DNA of 64,000 nucleotides, taken from positions 459-64,458 of the forward strand of contig JAUYEE010000330.1 of assembly GCA_030691545.1 (NCBI GenBank), written 5' to 3'. Numbering within the stretch: position 1 is the stretch's first letter; every line of letters starts with the position of its first letter. The notes beneath the pieces were generated by a model. That model worked only from the letters and a program-made list of their open reading frames with translations. It was not told where the DNA came from and searched no databases. A program made the translations under genes and the position numbers. Source of the stretch: a bacterium. GTDB lineage: Bacteria; Auribacterota; JABMQX01. This document shows positions 53,215 to 64,000 of the stretch, one piece after another.

Positions 53215-54147
53215 TTGGCCAAGGATAGATACATGGGTCTGGCAGCGTTAGTCCCTATCAATCGAGAATTTGTTCTGCGGAAATGCGCTTTGTTTCAGGA
53301 TGTGCACTTGTGGCCTCTCCGGCAAGAGTTAGATCCGGAACGCTGGCTGAGTAATTTTCTTCCTTCCGAGATCGATCACGCCGTCCACCTTCTGAACGCC
53401 TTCATGTACTTTAGCCGGGAGGTTATGAACCAGATGATGATCGCCGCTTTTCAGGGATTAAGTCACCTCCAGTGGTGGGGGAACGAGCCGTACATAAGCT
53501 CTCGTGCTGGGTGGCGATCATTCGTGGACAGCGTACTTATCACCTGCGTCACAGGAGAGCGCCCCAGCGACACGGACAGCGGGCACCATTTCCAAAGGAT
53601 GGCTCGGCAGGTTCTCGGGATTCCGGAACAGCGCATTTTGAGCCCTGAGGACACCCTTAGGGAGATTCTGAACCATGGACCTCGGTGCGTGGTCTTTGTT
53701 GATGATTTTGTGGGTTCTGGGAGGCAGTTCAGGACAACGTGGGCGCGCGACGTCGCCGTGACTAAGTCCGCATCGATCTCGTTCCAGAAGGTGGCGTCAA
53801 TCATGCCCGACAACAGGTTCTTTTATTGCCCCCTCATATGTACTCGTCACGGCGAGAGGGTGGTCCGAAACAAGTGCCCCGAAGTCGAGGTTTGTCCGGC
53901 ACACTTCCTAGAGCCCGAATATGGTGCCCTCTCGCCCGACAGCTTCGTTTGGCCCGATCATCTTCGCGCCTCGGCATACACCTTTCTTGAACAGGCAAGC
54001 GCTCGCGCCGGGATTGCCGACACTGAATGGCGAGGTATTGATGACCTTGGCTTGGTGCTCGCGTTCGAGCATAGTGTTCCGGACGCAGCCCTGAAAATGA
54101 TATATTGGGAGAAGAACAACTGGAAACCGCTGGTCAGGAGAAAATGA
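53215..54147 (+). CDS. Phosphoribosyltransferase-like protein (island gene 1)
   Basis: VVFVDDFVGSGRQF resembles the PRPP-binding motif of type-I PRTases. The rest is unrecognised. TTG at 53215 or ATG at 53233. Confidence 0.4.
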   Translation: MAKDRYMGLAALVPINREFVLRKCALFQDVHLWPLRQELDPERWLSNFLPSEIDHAVHLLNAFMYFSREVMNQMMIAAFQGLSHLQWWGNEPYISSRAGWRSFVDSVLITCVTGERPSDTDSGHHFQRMARQVLGIPEQRILSPEDTLREILNHGPRCVVFVDDFVGSGRQFRTTWARDVAVTKSASISFQKVASIMPDNRFFYCPLICTRHGERVVRNKCPEVEVCPAHFLEPEYGALSPDSFVWPDHLRASAYTFLEQASARAGIADTEWRGIDDLGLVLAFEHSVPDAALKMIYWEKNNWKPLVRRK

Positions 54148-56063
54148 GCAAGCAACCGCGCCCGCTAACAGCTGTGGAACAGGTTAGCCGGTGGTTCGGC
54201 AGCTTCAAGGCCGAATGGCTCAGGGAGCAGATGTACGATCTGTTTACAGAGCCTTCGTATTTTCCGGAAGTCACCTCCCCCCGTCCGTGCGTGCTGTTGG
54301 GGGGCCGAGGAACCGGCAAGACGACGGTGCTCCGCTGCATGTCCTACGAAGGCCGTTTCGCCTTGACGGGCGAGGCAATCGATGGCGTGCCAAAGTGGCC
54401 GTACTATGGCTTCTACCTGCGAGTGAATACGAACAGGGTCACAGCTTTCAGTGGCCCTGAGCTGACGGACGAAAGGTGGACGCGTGCATTCGGGCATTAT
54501 TTTAACCTCGTCCTGTGCACGCTTGTCTTTCGTTTCTTGGAGTGGTATCAGCTGCGCTGTCCCCAATCGGACTCGCTGAAGCCGAACGACTGCGCCGAGG
54601 TCGCGGCGAGTCTGCATCTAGGAGATTTGACGACCCTGCGTGATTTGCTGGCAGGTGCTCGTCGGGCATTGGTGGACTTCGAAGCATGCCTAAACAACGT
54701 GGCCGAGGGAAAACTGCCGCCACTTTCCATGCAGGGCGCCCCGCTCGATGCCCTCTTCGAGGCCTTGCCTCGCCTGCCGGACTTTGTCCACAAGACGTTT
54801 TTCTTTCTGATCGACGAATATGAGAACTTCCTTGATTACCAGCAGCGTGTCGTTAACACTCTCATAAAGCATTCCGGAGAGGCCTACACTTTCAAGGTGG
54901 GGGTCAGAGAGCTTGGTTGGCGGTGCCGCACCACGCTAAACGAAAACGAGCAACTGATCCATCCCGCAGACTATGAGCGCATCCATATCCAGGAGAAGTT
55001 GGATGGCGAGCCTTTCGTCAAACTGGCGCTTCAAGTATGTAATGAGCGAATAAAGAGATTGCGTATCCCAAGAAAACGTGTACCGAACCTCGAACAGCTT
55101 TTGCCTCCCCTCGACGAAGACGAGGAAGCGGAGTTACTTGATGAGGGCAGCGGAAAGTTAGAGGCGGCCGCACGGGAGCTGTCTCGAGCCGTCCCGCCGG
55201 AAGACTCCCCTCTGCTTCAGACACTGACCCCGCTTCAAAAGTACTTCTTGCTCTGTTGGTCGCAAGGCAAGGCGATGCCGCTGGAGCAGGTCTGGCGGCA
55301 GTTCCTGGACTCCACGGTCGAGCACGAAACGCGGTACATGAATTACAAGCACTCGATATTGTATACGTTACGACGCGGCAAGCGAGGCATCCAGAAGTAT
55401 TACAGCGGGTGGAGGGTATTTACCCAGTTGGCCGCATGCAATATCAGATACTTCTTGGAGCTCGTCGTGCAGAGCCTTCTGACCGCCCTCGAACACACTG
55501 GCCGGCTTGACAAGCCCATTTCGGCCAAGATTCAAACGCTCGCTGCTCAGGCTGTGGGCAAGAAGAATCTGTCTGAGCTCGAAGGCCTGAGTGTCTACGG
55601 GGGGCAGCTGACGAAACTGCTGTTGGGCTTGGGCCGGGTTTTTCAGACCATGGCCTCTGAACCACTCGGTCACGCACCGGAGGTAAATCAGTTCCACCTT
55701 GTGGACGGTGACCCACTGTACAGTGAGACCAAGACCGGCACTGATCAACCTGACGAAGTTGAATGTCTCTTGACATCCGCCGTGATGCACCTTGCTCTCC
55801 TGCGAAGTCCAGGAAGTAAGCTGGCAGACGAGACAGAGACTAAGGACTACGACTACATGATTCACCCTATTTTCAGCCCCTTCTTCGTTTTCAGCCACCG
55901 GCGCAAGAGGAAGATGTCTCTGAGGCGCGATCAGCTGCTGGGCCTCGTACACCATCCCAAAAAGACGATCCGGGAAATACTCGCGGCCCAGAACCGCGCG
56001 ACCGAGGACCCCTTGCCGGAGCAGTTATTGATGTTCCAAGGCTACTACGATGCCGATTCGTGA
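54144..56063 (+). CDS. P-loop NTPase (island gene 2)
   Basis: Walker A GGRGTGKTT. Walker-B-like FFFLIDEYENF about 190 aa later. ATGA start/stop overlap with gene 1. Confidence 0.6.
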   Translation: MSKQPRPLTAVEQVSRWFGSFKAEWLREQMYDLFTEPSYFPEVTSPRPCVLLGGRGTGKTTVLRCMSYEGRFALTGEAIDGVPKWPYYGFYLRVNTNRVTAFSGPELTDERWTRAFGHYFNLVLCTLVFRFLEWYQLRCPQSDSLKPNDCAEVAASLHLGDLTTLRDLLAGARRALVDFEACLNNVAEGKLPPLSMQGAPLDALFEALPRLPDFVHKTFFFLIDEYENFLDYQQRVVNTLIKHSGEAYTFKVGVRELGWRCRTTLNENEQLIHPADYERIHIQEKLDGEPFVKLALQVCNERIKRLRIPRKRVPNLEQLLPPLDEDEEAELLDEGSGKLEAAARELSRAVPPEDSPLLQTLTPLQKYFLLCWSQGKAMPLEQVWRQFLDSTVEHETRYMNYKHSILYTLRRGKRGIQKYYSGWRVFTQLAACNIRYFLELVVQSLLTALEHTGRLDKPISAKIQTLAAQAVGKKNLSELEGLSVYGGQLTKLLLGLGRVFQTMASEPLGHAPEVNQFHLVDGDPLYSETKTGTDQPDEVECLLTSAVMHLALLRSPGSKLADETETKDYDYMIHPIFSPFFVFSHRRKRKMSLRRDQLLGLVHHPKKTIREILAAQNRATEDPLPEQLLMFQGYYDADS

Positions 56064-56988
56064 CCATCCCCTCCCGACGCGTTGCTACGACCGAGTGGAA
56101 CGTTTCTCTCCAGAAATCGGGAGCGCGTACGTTTTCGGCAGGTCCGTTGAGGACAGGAGCGCGCATGTCGAGAAATGGACAGAACGTGGCGAGAGTGTGC
56201 AGTTCGTCCAAATTCTGGATGAAACACGCAATTCCTTTAGGATGGCGATCGCCGGGTGTTCGCAAGAAGTGCTTCTGAGGAGCAGCTCCCGACTGGCGGC
56301 TTTTTGGTCGAGTATTGACAGGCCGATGTGCTACCTCGATATCACCGGTTTGCCTCATCACATCTGGGCTCCTCTACTCCGCTCAGGATTGAGCGCCTGC
56401 CGGCGACTGGCCGCCGTGTACGTCGAACCGGCCGACTATCAGCTGAGCCCGGTCCCAACAGAGGGCGAGATTTTCGACCTCAGCGAAAAAATATCTGGCA
56501 TCGCCCCGATCCCTGGGTTTGCTTCGCTGACCGAGCCCGCTGACGAACGCGTATGCTTCGTTCCCTTATTGGGATTCGAGGGTATCCGCTTTGCGTATTT
56601 GGTTGAGCAGGTGCAGCCTCCAGGCGAGAGAATAATCCCCGTTATTGGCGTACCCGGATTTCGTCCCGAGTATCCTTTTCACGCCTTCCAGGCCAATATG
56701 TCAGTCCTCAAGGAGACCCAGGCTTGGAAGAGCGTGCGTTATGCCAGAGCCAACTGCCCTTTCAGCCTGTTCTACCTGTTGGAGGACATCGCAGAGCAGT
56801 ATCCGGAGCACCAGCTCAAGATCGCTCCCATTGGCACGAAACCGCATGCTTTGGGTGCCGTGCTGTTTGCCGCCACTAGCCGACGGCCGGTTGAACTCAT
56901 ATATGATCACCCCATTCGGAAGGCGAAGCGCACCAAGGACACGGGGCGGTTATTTGTATATTTCGTGTCGGCATTCGCTCAAGGGTGA
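56050..56988 (+). CDS. Hypothetical protein (island gene 3)
   Basis: Overlaps gene 2 by 14 nt. No family recognised. Confidence 0.4.
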   Translation: MPIRDHPLPTRCYDRVERFSPEIGSAYVFGRSVEDRSAHVEKWTERGESVQFVQILDETRNSFRMAIAGCSQEVLLRSSSRLAAFWSSIDRPMCYLDITGLPHHIWAPLLRSGLSACRRLAAVYVEPADYQLSPVPTEGEIFDLSEKISGIAPIPGFASLTEPADERVCFVPLLGFEGIRFAYLVEQVQPPGERIIPVIGVPGFRPEYPFHAFQANMSVLKETQAWKSVRYARANCPFSLFYLLEDIAEQYPEHQLKIAPIGTKPHALGAVLFAATSRRPVELIYDHPIRKAKRTKDTGRLFVYFVSAFAQG

Positions 56989-57007
56989 CATCCACCTGGA
57001 GCAGACA

Positions 57008-58102
57008 ATGGACCGGTTCTACACACCGCCGCAGCTTGCAGAAAAAGTGGTGCGAATGGCGTGCTCCGATGCACTGCCAGAACGGGTCGCCGACTTTGCT
57101 GCCGGCAGTGGCGGTTTGCTGCACGCAGCACTTACTCGGTGGCCGGGAGCGGAGATCGTCGCAACGGATATCGACCGGCAAGCCGTCGAGCACCTTCGCC
57201 GCTCAAATGCAACGTGGCGCGTCGGCAAATGCGACTTCCTCAACCGAAATTCGCGGGCGCGCTGTCGTGTCCTCTCTGAGATAAGGGGCGGTGTCCCCTT
57301 GGTTTTGCTAAACCCTCCTTTTTCGTGTCGCGGCGGCAGGCGATGGTCAGCCGGGCTGAATGGCACCGGTGTTCGCGTCAGCAAGGCATTAGCATTCGTA
57401 ATAACGGCAATATCATACCTGGCTCCCGAAGGGCAGATCGTCGCCATTCTTCCGGCAGGGACCGTGAGAAGCGATGGGGATCGGAGGGCCTGGGAACTGT
57501 TACGGGCGATTTGTTGCTGCAAGTCGGCAGCGATGGACGGGCGTAAGACCTTCGCGGGTTGCTACCCTCAGACTATCATAGTACGCTTGAAGCTACGCTC
57601 CCGCCATGTGCGGCTGGAAAAAGTCCGTCTGTGGCGCAGCGCATATGTGAAGGCAACCAAAGCGACCACAGTCTCCATCATACGGGGGACATTTCAGATG
57701 CACACCTTGCAGAGATACCGATCATCAAGCTCCGTGCCGCTACTCCACACCACTAGCCTTGACAGAACTGAGGTTGTCGCCCCGCGGGTGCGGGTGAGCA
57801 CGTCCAGAAGGAAAGTGAGAGGTCCCGCAGTCCTGTTGCCCAGAGTAGGACAGCCCGACCCGGCCAAAATCTGCCTTTACATGAAAAAGGAGCCTGTCGC
57901 GCTGTCGGACTGCGTGCTGGCTTTGCGCTGCACCACGTGCGCTGACGCCCGTTCGGTACGACAGGTGTTGCTCAAGAACTGGGGTGTCCTCGAAACACTT
58001 TACGGTGGTACATGCGCTCGATACATAACGATAATGCGTTTGACAAACCTGCTTGAATCCTGTGGATTGTCCGTTACGAGCGCCTCATCTGATCGGTCAT
58101 GA
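57008..58102 (+). CDS. N6-adenine DNA methyltransferase, gamma class (island gene 4)
   Basis: FYTPPQLAEKVV, motif I DFAAGSGGLL, motif IV LLNPPFS. GGAG RBS 8 nt before ATG 57008. Confidence 0.75.
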   Translation: MDRFYTPPQLAEKVVRMACSDALPERVADFAAGSGGLLHAALTRWPGAEIVATDIDRQAVEHLRRSNATWRVGKCDFLNRNSRARCRVLSEIRGGVPLVLLNPPFSCRGGRRWSAGLNGTGVRVSKALAFVITAISYLAPEGQIVAILPAGTVRSDGDRRAWELLRAICCCKSAAMDGRKTFAGCYPQTIIVRLKLRSRHVRLEKVRLWRSAYVKATKATTVSIIRGTFQMHTLQRYRSSSSVPLLHTTSLDRTEVVAPRVRVSTSRRKVRGPAVLLPRVGQPDPAKICLYMKKEPVALSDCVLALRCTTCADARSVRQVLLKNWGVLETLYGGTCARYITIMRLTNLLESCGLSVTSASSDRS

Positions 58103-58852: not shown

Positions 58853-60355
58853 CTATCGCTCGGTGCGCGTGGCGAGTTTCTGGGGTTGGATGCGGGGAGA
58901 ATGCGCTCCGCAACTCTCGGCGTTGGTCTCCTCGGCTTGCGGACTCGGGTAGAAGCCGAACTGGCGAAGGAGCTTCAACTTCGGCAGGACATTGTTCTCC
59001 AGGTCAATGTGGAAGAAGCCGGGGAAAACATCGGGGTTGTCCATGATGAGGCGGAAGTAGGACTCGTAGCGTTCCGGGATCTCCACATTGCCGCCGTGGC
59101 AGACTTCGTGCCCCGTGAAAACGAATTCCGGGAGGAGGTACGGGCAGAATTCGAGTTGAGCTTTGCCCGCGTATTCCCTGTAGATTTCCGTCTGGGGCAG
59201 AAGCGAAAGGAGGCTCGGCAGGACCCGGGCGCCCATCATCCGGAACGAGACCATCTGGAAGAGCGACTGGTTGAAGTCCTCCATCGTCTCGAACGGAAAG
59301 CCCCACACGAAAAACGCGTCCACTCTCGGGAAAATCTCGACGGCTTTCGGAATCAGGTCGAGGCTTTCGGCTGCCGTAAATCCTTTCTTGATTCGTTTCA
59401 GCACGGCATCGGAGCCGGACTCGATGCCGAAGCGCAGCTCGATGCAGCCGCTGTCGGCCATCGCTCGCATCATCTCCACGTCCGTCAGGTTGACCCGCCC
59501 AAAAGCTTTCCACTCGACGTCAAGCCCGGACGCTTGTAGCTCGCGGCAGAAGTTCATTACCTGGCGCTTGCCCGAAACGAAAAACTCATCCTGAAAAAGG
59601 AAGAGGTCCACTCCGGCTTCGCGTTGCAGCAGCTTCATCTCCTCCACGATGTTCTTCGGGCTTCGGAAATGGCTCTCCAGGTTCCAGACCGGCGCCACCG
59701 AGCAAAATGTGCAGGGATACGGGCAGCCGCGGCTGGTCATCATCCCGTAGCCAGCGTATTGCTTGAGGTCAATCTTCGTGAACGCGGGGAAAGGAATCGT
59801 GTCGAGGTCCTGAATCCTATCGCGGTCGGGGTTGTGATGAACCGAGCCGTTGCTTCGGTAAGAGATGCCCTTGATTGTTGACAGGTTGTTCCCATTGCGC
59901 AGGACATCGAGCAAGTCAGGGCCGGTGAGCTCTCCTTCACCCCGACAAATCACATCCACCCACGGGAATAGGCGTAGGATTCTGTCCTCGACAGACTTTG
60001 TGCCGACCCCGCCCAGCACGAGAGTTCTGTCAGGATACCTTTCTCGAAGCGCCTTCATCGCCATGATGGTGAACGGCAGAAGATTCGCCATGCACGACAA
60101 CCCAATCACCGGCGCCGGGTCGTCGAGGAGCGACAGAAACGCATTCATGTCGAACGGATCATCCGCCGGGCACAGTTGGTAATCGCGGAAATCCACCGCG
60201 AACCCGGCGTTCTCCAACGCCCGACTGAGATAGAGGCAACCCAGCGGCACGTGGAGCTCTCGTTCGATCTCCTCGCCGTACCGCATGAACAGCATATTCA
60301 GATTGACCAGTGTTATATCCGATGGCATTGGACTCTGCATCCTCCTTCGCCGCAA
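58853..60355 (-). CDS. B12-binding-domain radical SAM protein
   Basis: N-terminal cobalamin-binding Rossmann-like domain, then the radical-SAM cluster motif CPYPCTFC (CxxxCxxC). Confidence 0.85.
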   Translation of the reverse strand: MRRRRMQSPMPSDITLVNLNMLFMRYGEEIERELHVPLGCLYLSRALENAGFAVDFRDYQLCPADDPFDMNAFLSLLDDPAPVIGLSCMANLLPFTIMAMKALRERYPDRTLVLGGVGTKSVEDRILRLFPWVDVICRGEGELTGPDLLDVLRNGNNLSTIKGISYRSNGSVHHNPDRDRIQDLDTIPFPAFTKIDLKQYAGYGMMTSRGCPYPCTFCSVAPVWNLESHFRSPKNIVEEMKLLQREAGVDLFLFQDEFFVSGKRQVMNFCRELQASGLDVEWKAFGRVNLTDVEMMRAMADSGCIELRFGIESGSDAVLKRIKKGFTAAESLDLIPKAVEIFPRVDAFFVWGFPFETMEDFNQSLFQMVSFRMMGARVLPSLLSLLPQTEIYREYAGKAQLEFCPYLLPEFVFTGHEVCHGGNVEIPERYESYFRLIMDNPDVFPGFFHIDLENNVLPKLKLLRQFGFYPSPQAEETNAESCGAHSPRIQPQKLATRTER

Positions 60356-60364
60356 CAGGCGAGA

Positions 60365-60922
60365 CTAACCTTCCGATTTCACATCCTCAGCGGCCTGTTC
60401 CTTCGGTTTCGGACGGTCCGGGCGAATGCCCCTGACCACTTCGTCATCGTCCGAAGCCTGTTCCTTCTCCTCGACCTGAGTCTCCGCCGCCGGTTTCTCG
60501 TCCTCCGGCCGGTCGGGCCGGGTACCCTTCACTTCTTCTCCATCGTCATCACGACAGCCCAGAGTGCTCGCCCCCAGCGCTGCCAACATGACAGCCGCCG
60601 CTCTGCCGAGAAACGCCCTTCGGCTCGTCTCGCTGACCTTCGTATTGGCGATAATCGCCTCCAGTTGGCCCCTTGGGACCGCGTTGAGCATCAGAACCTC
60701 CGCCGGACCAAGTTCCAGCTCGATCTCCTTCGCCGCCTCCGAACGTTTCTCAACCAGCAGGTTCCTGAATTCAGCGTCAACCGAAGCCTTCTTCACGAGG
60801 ACCTCGATCCCCCGCGGAATGTCCCCGAGACTCTTACCGGACCCCGGCGGCCTCGCCCCAACAATCGTCGTCCTCACCGCCTCCTGCTCCGGTGTTCTTC
60901 CCTTGTGCTCTTTCCTCGCCAT
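60365..60922 (-). CDS. NHLP-leader-like small protein with internal Tat-like hydrophobic segment and acidic tail (paralog A)
   Basis: GGAGGA RBS then ATG. Conserved IPRGIEVLVKKASVDAEFRNLLVEKRSEAAKEIELELGPAE resembles the nitrile-hydratase-type leader (AKAWxDxEFKxxLLxNPKAAIxKELGVELPE). Then SRRAFLGRAAAVMLAALGASTLGC and a D/E/P-rich tail. Confidence 0.5.
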   Translation of the reverse strand: MARKEHKGRTPEQEAVRTTIVGARPPGSGKSLGDIPRGIEVLVKKASVDAEFRNLLVEKRSEAAKEIELELGPAEVLMLNAVPRGQLEAIIANTKVSETSRRAFLGRAAAVMLAALGASTLGCRDDDGEEVKGTRPDRPEDEKPAAETQVEEKEQASDDDEVVRGIRPDRPKPKEQAAEDVKSEG

Positions 60923-60963
60923 GGCTGTTCCTCCGGTTCCATCCATTCGTTTTCTAGTTTTAC

Positions 60964-61431
60964 TCAAGCGTCCGGATCTGGTTCGGTGTCTTTGTCTGCC
61001 GGAGCTTCGATCTGCGACTTCGAGGCATTTACTTCGTCCGGCCGGATACCGCCGCATCCGTTGCAGCCCATCGTTCCAGTTCCCAATGCTGCCAGCATAA
61101 CGGCGGCCACCTTGCCGAGAAACACTGCCCTGCTCTTCCAGCTCACCTTGGTGTGGGCGATAATCGCTTCGAGTTGGCCTCTCGGCACATTGTTGAGCAT
61201 GAAGACCTCTGCCGCATCCAGCTCCAGCTCGATCTCCTTCGCCGCCTCCGAACGCTTCTCAACCACCAGCTTCTTGAATTCAGCATCAACCGAAGCCTTC
61301 TTCACCAACACCTCAATCCCCCGCGGAATGTCTCCGATGCTCTTTCCAGAACCCGGCGGCCTCGCCCCAACAATCGTTGTCCTCACCGCCTCCTGTTCCG
61401 CCGGCCTTCGCCCAGCTTTGTCAATTTTCAT
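60964..61431 (-). CDS. Paralog B of the same family
   Basis: Nucleotide identity to paralog A across the conserved domain looks about 85-90 percent by eye. Tail is NGCGGIRPDEVNASKSQIEAPADKDTEPDPDA. GAGGAGG RBS. Confidence 0.5.
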   Translation of the reverse strand: MKIDKAGRRPAEQEAVRTTIVGARPPGSGKSIGDIPRGIEVLVKKASVDAEFKKLVVEKRSEAAKEIELELDAAEVFMLNNVPRGQLEAIIAHTKVSWKSRAVFLGKVAAVMLAALGTGTMGCNGCGGIRPDEVNASKSQIEAPADKDTEPDPDA

Positions 61432-61552
61432 AGTTCGCTTTCCTCCTCGCCGCTCCACCAGTTCATTGGCAGATTGGCAATTTGCCTGCCATTGGCTGAC
61501 GGAAGGATGAATTGAGTGATACGCCTCTCTCCGTCAACGGGCGGCTTCTCTC

Positions 61553-62263
61553 CTACTTCCTCCATCGCAGGTTGCTTTTGAATGGCTCGCCGACAAATAC
61601 GTCCTCGAGGGTAGGACCCTTTCCCCAGCCCGAATACCGACGGTCTTGTGTCCACGCGTATACTATGCCATCAGACCGCAGTCGCTTGCCAACGTAAGGC
61701 GTTGCAGCCGCGATGGTGTATTTCGTGCTCCTATCGTATTTTGCGGGCCACGCAACGGCGCACCACGCCTCCTCTCGCAGGGACACATCCTCTGGTGCAT
61801 AGACCTTCACGAGATAGAACTCATGAACCTTCCCCTCGCCTGCTTCCGACCTGAACTCTGTCATATCCTCGCTGACCTGTGACCATCCGAGCTGGTCGGC
61901 CATCGCCAGGATATTGGCGAGAGTCGTGAACTCCGCCTTTCCATCGCCGTCCTCGTCAAAAATGCACTTATCTCTGAGAGCCAACTGGGCTCTGTGTAGA
62001 GAGACCAGATAGTTCCCCATGTATAGCCTCCGACCCAACGATGTCGGCGTCATCGGCCGCGAAAAGAGAATCACCGCGAGGGCGGTCAACAATATGCCCA
62101 GAACCCATCCCAAGACTCCGGGACGGAACTTGCGATGTCTGGCTTCAATCGGATGCTTGACGTTGGCTCCAGCGTCTTCCCGGAGGGCCATATGCGTACT
62201 CCGGAACTTTCCTTGCGCCGGCGACAGCGGCGCGCTGGTCATATGCGGTTCCGCGTCATCCAA
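61553..62263 (-). CDS. Single-pass membrane protein with periplasmic domain (DEDGDGKAEF acidic loop)
   Basis: One TM helix (VLGWVLGILLTALAVILF). Sits between paralogs B and C. Confidence 0.4.
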   Translation of the reverse strand: MDDAEPHMTSAPLSPAQGKFRSTHMALREDAGANVKHPIEARHRKFRPGVLGWVLGILLTALAVILFSRPMTPTSLGRRLYMGNYLVSLHRAQLALRDKCIFDEDGDGKAEFTTLANILAMADQLGWSQVSEDMTEFRSEAGEGKVHEFYLVKVYAPEDVSLREEAWCAVAWPAKYDRSTKYTIAAATPYVGKRLRSDGIVYAWTQDRRYSGWGKGPTLEDVFVGEPFKSNLRWRK

Positions 62264-62278
62264 CGGACCCTGTTTTCC

Positions 62279-62767
62279 TCAGCTCTCCGAATCCGGGCCG
62301 GACTCGTCGTCTGCGGGGGCTTCGAGTTCTCGCTTGGCGGCGAAGTCGCGGTCCGGGTCAATGCCCTTACCGCAGCCTGTGGGAAGCGTTATTGTGCCGA
62401 GAGCGGTGAGCATGACCGCCGCGGTTCTCCCAAGAAACGCCGCTCGGTGTTTCCAGTTCACCTTCGTCCGCGCGATAATCCCCTCGAGCTGCTCTTTCGG
62501 CACGGTCGTGAGAATCATCCGTTCGGCGGAATGGAGATCGAGATCAATCTCTCGCGCAGCGTCGGCCCGCTTCTCGATCAGAAGCTGTTTGAATGCAGGG
62601 TCAACGGAGGCTTTCTTGACGAGGACTTCGATGCCGCGAGGAATGCTTGCCGGACTTGTCTCCGCGGACAGTGGATGTTTGGTGGAGGCAGCGCGGCGCG
62701 CCGCTTTGTTTCCGACGGGCGCGCGGTCCGTCTCCTTCCGAGAAGTTCGACGTTTCAGCTTATCCAT
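62279..62767 (-). CDS. Paralog C of the same family
   Basis: IPRGIEVLVKKASVDPAFKQLLIEKRADAAREIDLDL...HRAAFLGRTAAVMLTALGTITLPTGC plus an acidic tail. GAGGGAGGG RBS before the ATG. Confidence 0.5.
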   Translation of the reverse strand: MDKLKRRTSRKETDRAPVGNKAARRAASTKHPLSAETSPASIPRGIEVLVKKASVDPAFKQLLIEKRADAAREIDLDLHSAERMILTTVPKEQLEGIIARTKVNWKHRAAFLGRTAAVMLTALGTITLPTGCGKGIDPDRDFAAKRELEAPADDESGPDSES

Positions 62768-64000
62768 AGTCCCTCCCTCAAATGTAGTTCCAACCTGTTT
62801 CCAACATAGCACATTTCTAAAACAAGTCAATACTGTACATGGGAGAAGGGTGTGGCTACGGATGATGGGGCGACGGATGAATCCGCTCATCGAGAAGCCC
62901 GGCTAAAGCCGGCTCCGGCAAACAAGGTTCGCTTCTCCCATACCACCGCCTGAAGACGGTGGCTAAAGTGGGATGCCGGCTAAAGCCCGGCAAGCCAGGG
63001 CGACGTTTAGGCCGAGTCGCGGGGACCCGGACCGTCTTGTACGGCAGGTGACTGGATTTGCGAAAGTCCGTACTCAGGGGTGCGAAAGAGTGCTGCCCGC
63101 CTGACGCCAATCTTCAGGGGAGCGCTTCGGCACGTGGGTTGTGGGAGGAAGAATGAAGGCGCCCAAGAGCAATCTACGGGCGCCTCATGAAGTAGCGCGG
63201 GAGGGGAAAGGCACTGTATTGTTTTGCCTTCCTGCCAATCACATTCCTTCAGCCCAACGTCAAGCTGTGAGTTTCTCTGACTTTGGCCTTCATGCTGAAG
63301 TTGCCTTCCTGATCCGTTCTGCCTTTCCTCTCCCGCAAGTTGCCTTCGGCGCGGTTCCAGCAGCATTTGCCGGTCGGCTGGGGGTGAAAGCCCGTGTCTA
63401 AGGCTCTGAGTGCGCACCCGTTTTCTCCAGCAACCCGCTGCGGGATTGGTTCGCGCGGCCCGGCACATACCGGGGCCTAAGGGCGGCACGAGCGGCATCT
63501 CTCCCTCGCCGGATGGAGCTGGCCCCCGGCCGCGAATAATGCGGCCTTGCCCGTTCGGGTCCCACCGTTGGTCTGCGAGCCGCTCGTTCGTGGCAGTCGC
63601 CGGAACGCACCGCTTCACTCACGATCGGAAACGTCGGTCGCAGCTTGGCTGACCGCGCGAACCACATCCCGCGCCGAAAATGTCAAAGAACAGTACGTAG
63701 AAAAAGCGTCCTATGCTGCTCAGTGCTCCCCAGTTGGGCATGACGTCGCCGGGGGGGTTCGGGGGGTGTAAATTCGACGTTATGAGCACCAGTAGCATAG
63801 GAACGTGTGTGAGGTGTACAACAAGCGTGCCAAGGGAAGGATGGGGAAACAGATGCAGGTGACATATCTCCTAACCGTTGGCGGGTCAATTCATTAAAAA
63901 GCGAGATTCTGTCTCTTGGCTCAGCCCTCCGGGGTGACCGCAGGTTCTTCTCGCTCCGGGGCGCAGAATTTTTTCAACAAGAGCGCTGTGAAAACTCGGC

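Follow-up and report, generated by a model that had tools for sequence, protein, structure and literature searches.

A candidate two-gene maturation system that pairs NHLP-like precursors carrying a putative internal export signal with a cobalamin-dependent radical SAM enzyme

We analysed a window of 64,000 nucleotides (contig JAUYEE010000330.1 of assembly GCA_030691545.1, positions 459 to 64,458, from a bacterium of the Auribacterota), in which three related precursor-like genes, here called paralogs A, B and C, lie upstream of a gene for a B12-binding radical S-adenosylmethionine (SAM) enzyme. Precursor and enzyme genes form a two-gene system that is widespread and unannotated in uncultured anaerobic bacteria. 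A typical precursor consists of a helical domain resembling the nitrile hydratase-type leader peptide (NHLP) clan, an internal signal-like segment usually ending in Cys, and a proline-rich tail with G-[I/V]-R-P-D motifs. Judging from sequence and predicted structure, we consider it moderately probable that the two genes make up a two-component maturation system, in which the leader would recruit the enzyme, the G-[I/V]-R-P-D tail would be modified, and the chain would then be exported and cut by a signal peptidase.

The two genes are closely coupled. Scanning one genome per species yielded 79 loci, and in 63 of the 65 that have at least 2.5 kb of sequence beyond the last precursor, a radical SAM gene whose product is 67–79% identical lies downstream on the same strand. 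The gap between the last precursor and this gene has a median of 281 nt. With the enzyme gene directly downstream so regularly, the precursors are not stand-alone structural genes, a possibility that the initial annotation of this DNA had kept in view. The reverse search, starting from the enzyme, found precursors directly upstream of all three enzymes whose contigs were checked. A locus may hold one precursor gene (42 loci), two (19 loci), three to six (17 loci) or, in one case, twelve. When the open reading frames (ORFs) of about 80 neighbourhoods were clustered all against all, the precursor and the B12-radical SAM enzyme were the sole conserved families, together with their antisense shadows; no conserved protease, transporter or partner with a recognition element (RRE) of RiPPs (peptides that are made on ribosomes and modified after translation) was found among these neighbourhoods. 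The next-largest groups were a histidine kinase and a response regulator, each at about 10 loci. A minority of loci, L086/L087 (1246–3725) among them, have such a pair directly upstream of the array, and it may regulate the precursor and radical SAM genes.

The family is large. A search with paralog B returned at least 729 protein clusters, all named 'hypothetical', and the organisms, where named, were metagenome-assembled genomes (MAGs) of Planctomycetota. Within this phylum the loci belong to Phycisphaerae, Pirellulales, Thermoguttaceae and Brocadiia; at least six further phyla are represented through Verrucomicrobiota, Lentisphaerota, Zixibacteria, Omnitrophota, Desulfomonilaceae, Anaerolineae and one Coatesbacteria chromosome. 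Because several loci stand on contigs of 0.8–7.5 Mb, this spread is not only a binning artefact. The enzyme search gave more than 1,600 clusters at E<1e-20, and the best 120 matches were 72–89% identical and had generic or automatic names.

In the window, the genes of the system and the parts of the precursors are placed as follows.

58853 to 60355, minus strand: B12-binding radical SAM enzyme, a 500-codon ORF from TTG 60355, with the motif CPYPCTFC
60365 to 60922, minus strand: precursor paralog A, 185 aa, identified by a match to the NHLP-clan profile NF038399 (E=2.4e-6) and by alignment with B and C
60836 to 60871, minus strand: N-terminal motif of paralog A, TTIVGARPPGSG
60647 to 60820, minus strand: NHLP-like core of paralog A
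60554 to 60622, minus strand: signal-like segment of paralog A, RRAFLGRAAAVMLAALGASTLGC
60512 to 60526 and 60416 to 60430, minus strand: motifs GTRPD and GIRPD of paralog A
60964 to 61431, minus strand: precursor paralog B, 155 aa, identified by the paralog alignment and an AlphaFold2 model
61345 to 61380, minus strand: N-terminal motif of paralog B
61156 to 61329, minus strand: NHLP-like core of paralog B
61063 to 61131, minus strand: signal-like segment of paralog B, RAVFLGKVAAVMLAALGTGTMGC
61036 to 61050, minus strand: motif GIRPD of paralog B
62279 to 62767, minus strand: precursor paralog C, 162 aa, matched by NF038399 (E=2e-5), N-terminal motif absent
62471 to 62644, minus strand: NHLP-like core of paralog C
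62372 to 62446, minus strand: signal-like segment of paralog C, RAAFLGRTAAVMLTALGTITLPTGC
62351 to 62365, minus strand: motif GIDPD of paralog C

Each paralog has its own ribosome-binding site, as had been proposed, with a GGAGG-type sequence 5–9 nt before the ATG of A, B and C. The radical SAM gene probably starts at ATG 60328 (491 aa) rather than at TTG 60355, because its homologs are about 491 aa long.

The initial annotation had described the paralogs as a recent tandem duplication with 85–90% nucleotide identity, sharing a conserved core and a twin-arginine-like motif before a hydrophobic stretch ending in Cys, followed by hypervariable tails. The three proteins do align along that core, and the hydrophobic segment is present in all of them, ending G-C. 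The identity is lower than had been estimated, at 81% between A and B and 66–67% between either of these and C; compared across 112 codons, A and B are 83% identical in amino acids and differ silently at 32 codons. The A, B and C types are each matched more closely by proteins encoded on other metagenome contigs, so a recent duplication is not supported. One NCBI MAG has a protein (P0007) identical to paralog A. The twin-arginine motif exists in A (SRRAFLG) and is absent from B (S-R-A-V-FLG) and C (H-R-A-A-FLG). The tails are not wholly different, as G-x-[R/D]-P-D is common to A (two copies), B and C, and the tails of B and C can be aligned further along as well (…EAPAD…PD…). The tail is defined by a conserved repeated motif, which does not support hypervariable or diversified cores. 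Paralogs A and B fit what we take to be the PROSITE-type lipobox pattern, and C (L-P-T-G-C) fits it less well.

The core of the precursors spans from PRGIEVLVKKASVD to QLEAIIA, and AlphaFold2 modelled it as four short helices with a predicted local distance difference test score (pLDDT) above 93. In the model of paralog B, residues 37–100 reach pLDDT >93 and the four helices are followed by a long helix. The NHLP-like nature of this leader, which had been suggested from the sequence, is seen as a sub-threshold similarity at the level of the clan and fails at the level of the family. The profile NF038399 (Os1348 family, NHLP clan) matched 52 of 52 members at E≤0.01, with the best at 1.4e-9 and 36.5 bits, under its curated cut-off of 40 bits. 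TIGR03793, the NHLP leader family, matched one of the 52 (E=0.0064), the Nif11 profile TIGR03798 matched none of them, and PF14407 and NHase_alpha gave weak matches to the leader. A Foldseek comparison of the leader model with the PDB placed three chains of Os1348 (6lk7) at ranks 1–3, with probability 0.96, 60 columns and a root mean square deviation of 3.3 Å at E=0.18, and the proteusin precursor 8tb1 at rank 50. Profiles and model suggest that the predicted leader resembles the NHLP clan at most, and do not place it in the NHLP family proper.

The anatomy of the family was derived from 203 distinct precursor sequences (204 members in some counts). The N-terminal motif TTIVGGRPPGSG occurs in 174 of 204 members and is missing from 30, including paralog C. 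After the core come R-x-x-F-L-G, the hydrophobic AAAVMLAALG and then [G/A/S]-C. The Cys is found in 178 of 204 members (87%), its distance from the core being almost constant, and it is preceded by G, A or S in 170 of 174 (98%). At the same position, A-x-A was seen in 16 of 29 members without the Cys, compared with 38 of 174 that carry it. The family thus has the layout of a lipobox, namely a positive n-region, an h-region and [G/A/S]-C. The signal-like segment begins at about residue 99–105, so that it is not N-terminal, unlike that of bacterial lipoproteins.

Other accounts of this segment were tried and rejected. F-L-G is nearly invariant, and RR precedes it in 80 of 203 members (39%); the TAT model TIGR01409 reached 11.9 bits with a cut-off of 16.7. 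Twin-arginine (Tat) export is therefore not supported as a family-wide trait, although it may serve members with RR, paralog A among them. An internal start at the conserved Met near residue 78, which would give an ordinary N-terminal signal, was rejected as B and C have no GGAGG there; the GGAGG that stands 5 nt before this Met in paralog A is forced by invariant A-E codons. The putative C-terminal anchoring domain 'lipo-invert' (NF058595) gave sub-threshold matches on the signal-like segment of two members (P0058 98–140 and P0044 86–149), which we regard as a composition-level match (17–21 bits, cut-off 37 bits). A literature search found no paper that mentions this recent NCBIfam model.

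The tail is 20% proline and up to about 550 residues long. G-x-x-P-D occurs 479 times in the tails, compared with 23±4.5 in shuffled tails. When PDxP was taken as the anchor, G stood at position −3 in 92% of 439 cases, and with G[IV]R as the anchor, P came next in 92% and D in 81%. The consensus of the site is T-[K/T/R]-G-[I/V/S]-[R/Q]-P-D-R-P-P, with 10–11 residues as the commonest spacing. The first site usually lies 2–12 residues past the Cys, and in 68 of 203 proteins the chain ends within 8 residues of a G..P. Some tails contain TonB_C or CarboxypepD_reg β-sandwich domains, both of which are envelope domains; they stand after the signal-like segment and are bracketed by the motifs. At one locus (L084 544–6008), six precursor-like genes lie in a row upstream of one radical SAM gene. 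Their exported parts hold CarboxypepD_reg β-sandwich or TonB_C-like domains between GxxPD motifs, and this array also includes a Cys-rich DUF3795 gene. At another (L005 10708–12672, which corresponds to L001 8738–10687), the second precursor ends about 30 residues into the NHLP-like core and runs in frame into an E1 dehydrogenase/transketolase gene; this fusion is a rearrangement or an assembly chimera.

The initial annotation was right about the B12-binding radical SAM gene, which matches PF02310 (43.5 bits, cut-off 32.1) and PF04055 (62.6 bits) and has the CxxxCxxC motif. Among hidden Markov models (HMMs) of named enzymes, ApyD was the top match (168 bits, cut-off 750), followed by BchE (152.6 bits, cut-off 481), HpnJ (119.7 bits, cut-off 578) and TIGR03975, the PoyB/C-type RiPP C-methyltransferases (113.6 bits, cut-off 281.85). 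Membership in any of these families was rejected, every score being far under its cut-off. The AlphaFold2 model of the enzyme (predicted template modelling score, pTM, 0.81) has CysS, TsrM, OxsB, MgmA and TokK as its best PDB matches (Foldseek E=1e-17 to 1e-18), and AprD4 matches too. The nearest solved relatives by sequence and fold are cobalamin radical SAM enzymes, and sequence and model together indicate a class B (cobalamin-dependent) radical SAM enzyme. The C-terminal tail of the enzyme, residues ~471–488 of the 491-aa form (window ~58865–58920), is disordered and strongly conserved; it reads E-S-C-G-A-H-S-P-R-I-x-P-Q, in which C, G, A, H and P do not vary.

The relatives of the enzyme among 1.8 billion representative proteins help to place it. 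Its clade neighbours share 59%, 49%, 45% and 44% identity with it, followed by many at 35–42%, and none of ten scanned relatives (35–59% identity) matched a curated family. Grouping with housekeeping enzymes such as BchE or HpnJ, about which the initial annotation had cautioned, was not seen; the scores are low and the nearest relatives lie in RiPP-type clusters. Two of the clade neighbours have an N-terminal extension in which the motif known from the N-terminus of the precursors stands about 45 residues before the B12 domain, as TIVGGRP in the 49% relative (694 aa) and as VVGGRP in the 45% one (654 aa). The fused motifs are at residues 181–187 of P0244 and 164–170 of P0245, the extensions are 190–230 aa long, and these enzymes may be natural leader-enzyme fusions. 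The xVGGRP element thus behaves as one that belongs with the enzyme.

The genes beside these sister enzymes are also informative. Beside the 49% enzyme are a radical SAM/SPASM peptide maturase and a peptide of 66 aa that ends …SVAMGVRG, the 45% enzyme adjoins a 112-aa protein ending …VSMGVRG, and the 44% enzyme is accompanied by a 77-aa peptide ending …AVAGVRS. The genes of these peptides lie at L088 4328–4528, L091 1188–1526 (minus strand) and L093 4779–5012, and their products appear to form another RiPP family without a name, whose site is G-V-R-x at the C-terminus. The 59% enzyme is preceded by a divergent protein of 137 aa, which has a helical N-domain as leader, a lipobox (LLLTNLSGC) and the stretch RPGIPPDMPRP, and by a 93-aa protein ending …AGVRPDVPERR. 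At 39–41% identity, the neighbours are PqqD, radical SAM/SPASM proteins and small peptides with helical leaders in which G-V-R is absent, so G-V-R is limited to the closest clades. These contexts suggest that the enzyme lies within a radiation of peptide maturases, and that its closest branches have a G-[V/I]-R site in their substrates in common.

In the maturation pathway proposed here, the short docking motif TTIVGGRPPG and the four-helix NHLP-like domain would together form a leader that is recognised by the cytoplasmic B12-radical SAM enzyme. In the cytoplasm, the enzyme would act on the G-[I/V]-R-P-D sites. The likeliest reaction is a cobalamin-dependent C-methylation at an unactivated carbon, since most of the structurally related enzymes are methylases. 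The built-in signal would then carry the tail across the membrane. In members with the lipobox, Lgt would lipidate the Cys and signal peptidase II (LspA) would remove leader and signal in one cut; in the minority with A-x-A, signal peptidase I would remove them together. The product would be a lipid-anchored or periplasmic modified peptide or protein. Removal of the leader by a general signal peptidase would explain the absence of a conserved protease or exporter. A RiPP-like precursor and an exported peptide cut at the Cys, which the initial annotation had offered as two separate readings, look true together.

Several observations weigh against this pathway. B12-radical SAM enzymes catalyse reactions other than methylation too. 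At L005 and L062, both of them long loci, a precursor is present but no radical SAM gene lies within 10 kb. The signal-like helix FLGxAAAVMLAALG, with invariant G, A and M, is conserved far beyond an ordinary cleavable signal, which may point to a specific partner or to an anchor that stays in place, and we know of no demonstrated Lgt/LspA processing of a signal lying about 100 residues from the N-terminus. The matches of the leader to NHLP families all stay below the curated cut-offs, and its structural match to Os1348 has the high E value given above. The 67–79% identity of the enzyme across phyla is unusually high for a RiPP tailoring enzyme, and the tail site has its most invariant positions (G, P, D, P) only in part in common with the G-V-R-G/S of the sister peptides.

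The main rival, which we regard as unlikely, is that the precursors are bitopic membrane proteins. The segment would then be a retained anchor, the N-terminal motif and the helical domain would be the substrate or partner of the enzyme, and the repeats would serve as a TonB-like spacer. The N-terminal motif and the transmembrane sequence are indeed the most conserved parts, G-G-R-P resembles G-I-R-P, some members are TonB-like (anchor, Pro-rich region and TonB_C), and the cytoplasmic part of such a protein would be permanently accessible to the enzyme. However, the tail motif is nearly universal, while 30 of 204 members, including paralog C, have no N-terminal motif. The fused motif in the sister enzymes, whose peptides end G-V-R-x, fits a docking element better than a substrate, and the switch from the lipobox Cys to A-x-A at a single position fits a cleavage site.

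It is still less probable that G-I-R-P-D-R-P provides recognition or cleavage flanks and that the spacers are the true cores, either modified by the enzyme or released by a protease as in cyanobactin-type multi-core precursors. The spacers between motifs do vary in length and sequence, and cargo domains are bracketed by motifs, but with the commonest spacing of 10–11 residues many units are little more than the motif itself. Release from such flanks also agrees poorly with the lack of a conserved protease in the neighbourhoods and with the sister-clade peptides, which stop exactly at G-V-R-G/S and have no flanked core beyond it. We give very little credence to an enzyme acting on a small molecule or lipid, in the manner of BchE, HpnJ or ladderane-type B12-radical SAM enzymes, with its neighbours as co-regulated accessory envelope proteins: BchE and HpnJ rank high among the HMM matches below threshold, the conservation of the enzyme is on a par with that of a housekeeping enzyme and the JGI automatic annotation is BchE, but these scores lie far under their cut-offs (153 against 481 and 120 against 578), pigment, hopanoid and lipid genes are not conserved in the about 80 neighbourhoods, relatives at 39–59% identity accompany small peptides, radical SAM/SPASM maturases and PqqD, and one enzyme gene accompanied by a variable number of precursors is what substrate-enzyme pairs typically show.

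We searched the full-text literature for descriptions of a system like the proposed one and found none; the nearest were DAG-RiPPs, ApyD and Os1348. Haft, Basu and Mitchell reportedly described NHLP-leader RiPP precursors, or proteusins, in 2010, and the polytheonamide precursor PoyA with PoyB/PoyC is said to be of this type. The present family shares with them a long helical leader, with apparent kinship to the alpha chain of nitrile hydratase and placed upstream of the region that would be modified, as well as a cobalamin radical SAM partner and several precursor paralogs beside one enzyme gene. It differs from them in that neither a GG/GA cleavage site nor a C39-peptidase exporter nor a PoyD-type epimerase occurs in the about 80 neighbourhoods, a predicted signal peptide stands between leader and core, and the 'core' is a repeated motif that may include whole folded domains. 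Membership in the proteusin family proper, with whose leaders the initial annotation had compared the paralogs, is therefore not supported, as the epimerase, the GG site with a C39 exporter and a PoyB/C-type score are all lacking.

Os1348 of Pseudomonas sp. Os17 is a presumed precursor, an 85-aa stand-alone protein that adjoins a GNAT acetyltransferase and other genes (PMC7726476). No other profile or structure matches the leader domain better, although the profile match is under the curated cut-off; unlike the present family, Os1348 has no signal segment, G-I-R-P-D tail or B12-radical SAM enzyme. DAG-RiPPs (PNAS 2026) are precursors modified by an MNIO enzyme, with N-terminal lipoprotein signals and lipidation that was shown experimentally (PMC13056109). 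Their enzyme has no signal peptide and acts in the cytoplasm, no dedicated protease or exporter is needed, and the substrates range from peptides to proteins >30 kDa; the paper also cites the Sec-signal-bearing bufferins and oxazolins, and does not mention radical SAM or NHLP leaders (PMC13056109). As in DAG-RiPPs, the precursors described here carry their own predicted signal with a lipobox Cys for signal peptidase II or a site for signal peptidase I. In contrast, the N-terminal signal is the leader in DAG-RiPPs, whereas here a domain of about 100 residues precedes the signal; and an MNIO acts on Cys motifs there, whereas here a B12-radical SAM enzyme would act on G-I-R-P-D and lipidation is predicted.

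ApyD is the aminopyruvatide Tyr C-beta methyltransferase (PMC10635010), and MgmA (PDB 9ccb), one of the top structural matches of our enzyme, is the glutamine C-methylase of methyl-coenzyme M reductase. Both belong to the class B cobalamin radical SAM enzymes and transfer a methyl group to an sp3 carbon in a residue of a peptide or protein. The present system differs from them in having no RRE domain and another target sequence, and the enzyme reaches 168 of the 750 bits of the ApyD profile.

The system combines known kinds, leader-guided radical SAM maturation and lipoprotein-pathway RiPPs, in an undescribed architecture and with an undescribed site motif. We suggest only tentatively, with doubt and belief close to balance, that it is a new class, in which an NHLP leader stands before a lipoprotein or Sec signal, the signal peptidase serves as leader peptidase, and linker motifs are modified by a radical SAM enzyme. 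The substrates would range from short lipopeptides to full-size envelope proteins with TonB_C or β-sandwich cargo. If this is true, it would be the first radical SAM member of the lipoprotein-pathway RiPPs and would extend them to NHLP leaders, and a new cobalamin-dependent modification of the cell envelope would act at protein level on G-[I/V]-R-P-D. Its logic would be simple, with leader, export signal and substrate on one chain and one enzyme. Both genes fall below the Pfam and NCBIfam family cut-offs, except for the generic B12-binding and radical SAM domains, and mining based on signal peptides would probably miss the precursors because their signal is internal. The high conservation across phyla (Planctomycetota, Verrucomicrobiota, Lentisphaerota, Zixibacteria, Omnitrophota, Desulfobacterota, Chloroflexota and Coatesbacteria) suggests an important envelope function in anaerobes, and with two genes the system is directly testable by co-expression.

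Two further features belong to the array in the window.

61553 to 62263, minus strand: ORF of 236 aa between paralogs C and B, containing one hydrophobic segment, identified as an ORF only
62803 to 62830, minus strand: promoter-like site upstream of paralog C, TTGACT, 16 nt, TATGTT, with TG, identified as a consensus match

All five minus-strand ORFs of the initial annotation are present, in the order it gave. The 236-aa ORF, which had been called a single-transmembrane membrane protein of the array, does exist with its one segment, but it is probably not part of the system. It has no Pfam or NCBIfam match, and tblastn found a counterpart in none of 83 related loci; most probably the precursor array received it as an insertion specific to this lineage. 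The promoter-like site could be the operon promoter, and its consensus was found twice, compared with 1.5 sites expected in shuffled sequence.

The remaining window is ordinary chromosome, with DnaX, a BatA operon, RNase R and a sulfatase. Adjoining the radical SAM gene, a defence- or conflict-type module lies on the plus strand (53215–58102). It consists of a PRTase-CE protein (PF24390, 1.5e-47), an ORC-CDC6-like NTPase (PF24389, 1.7e-136), a 312-aa protein without a family and an N6-DNA-methylase-like protein. The GC skew is strong, sustained and positive (0.10–0.24) from 8000 to 50000, where nearly all long ORFs are on the plus strand; its sign flips near the precursor and radical SAM genes, reaching −0.21 at 60–62 kb, where the genes are on the minus strand.

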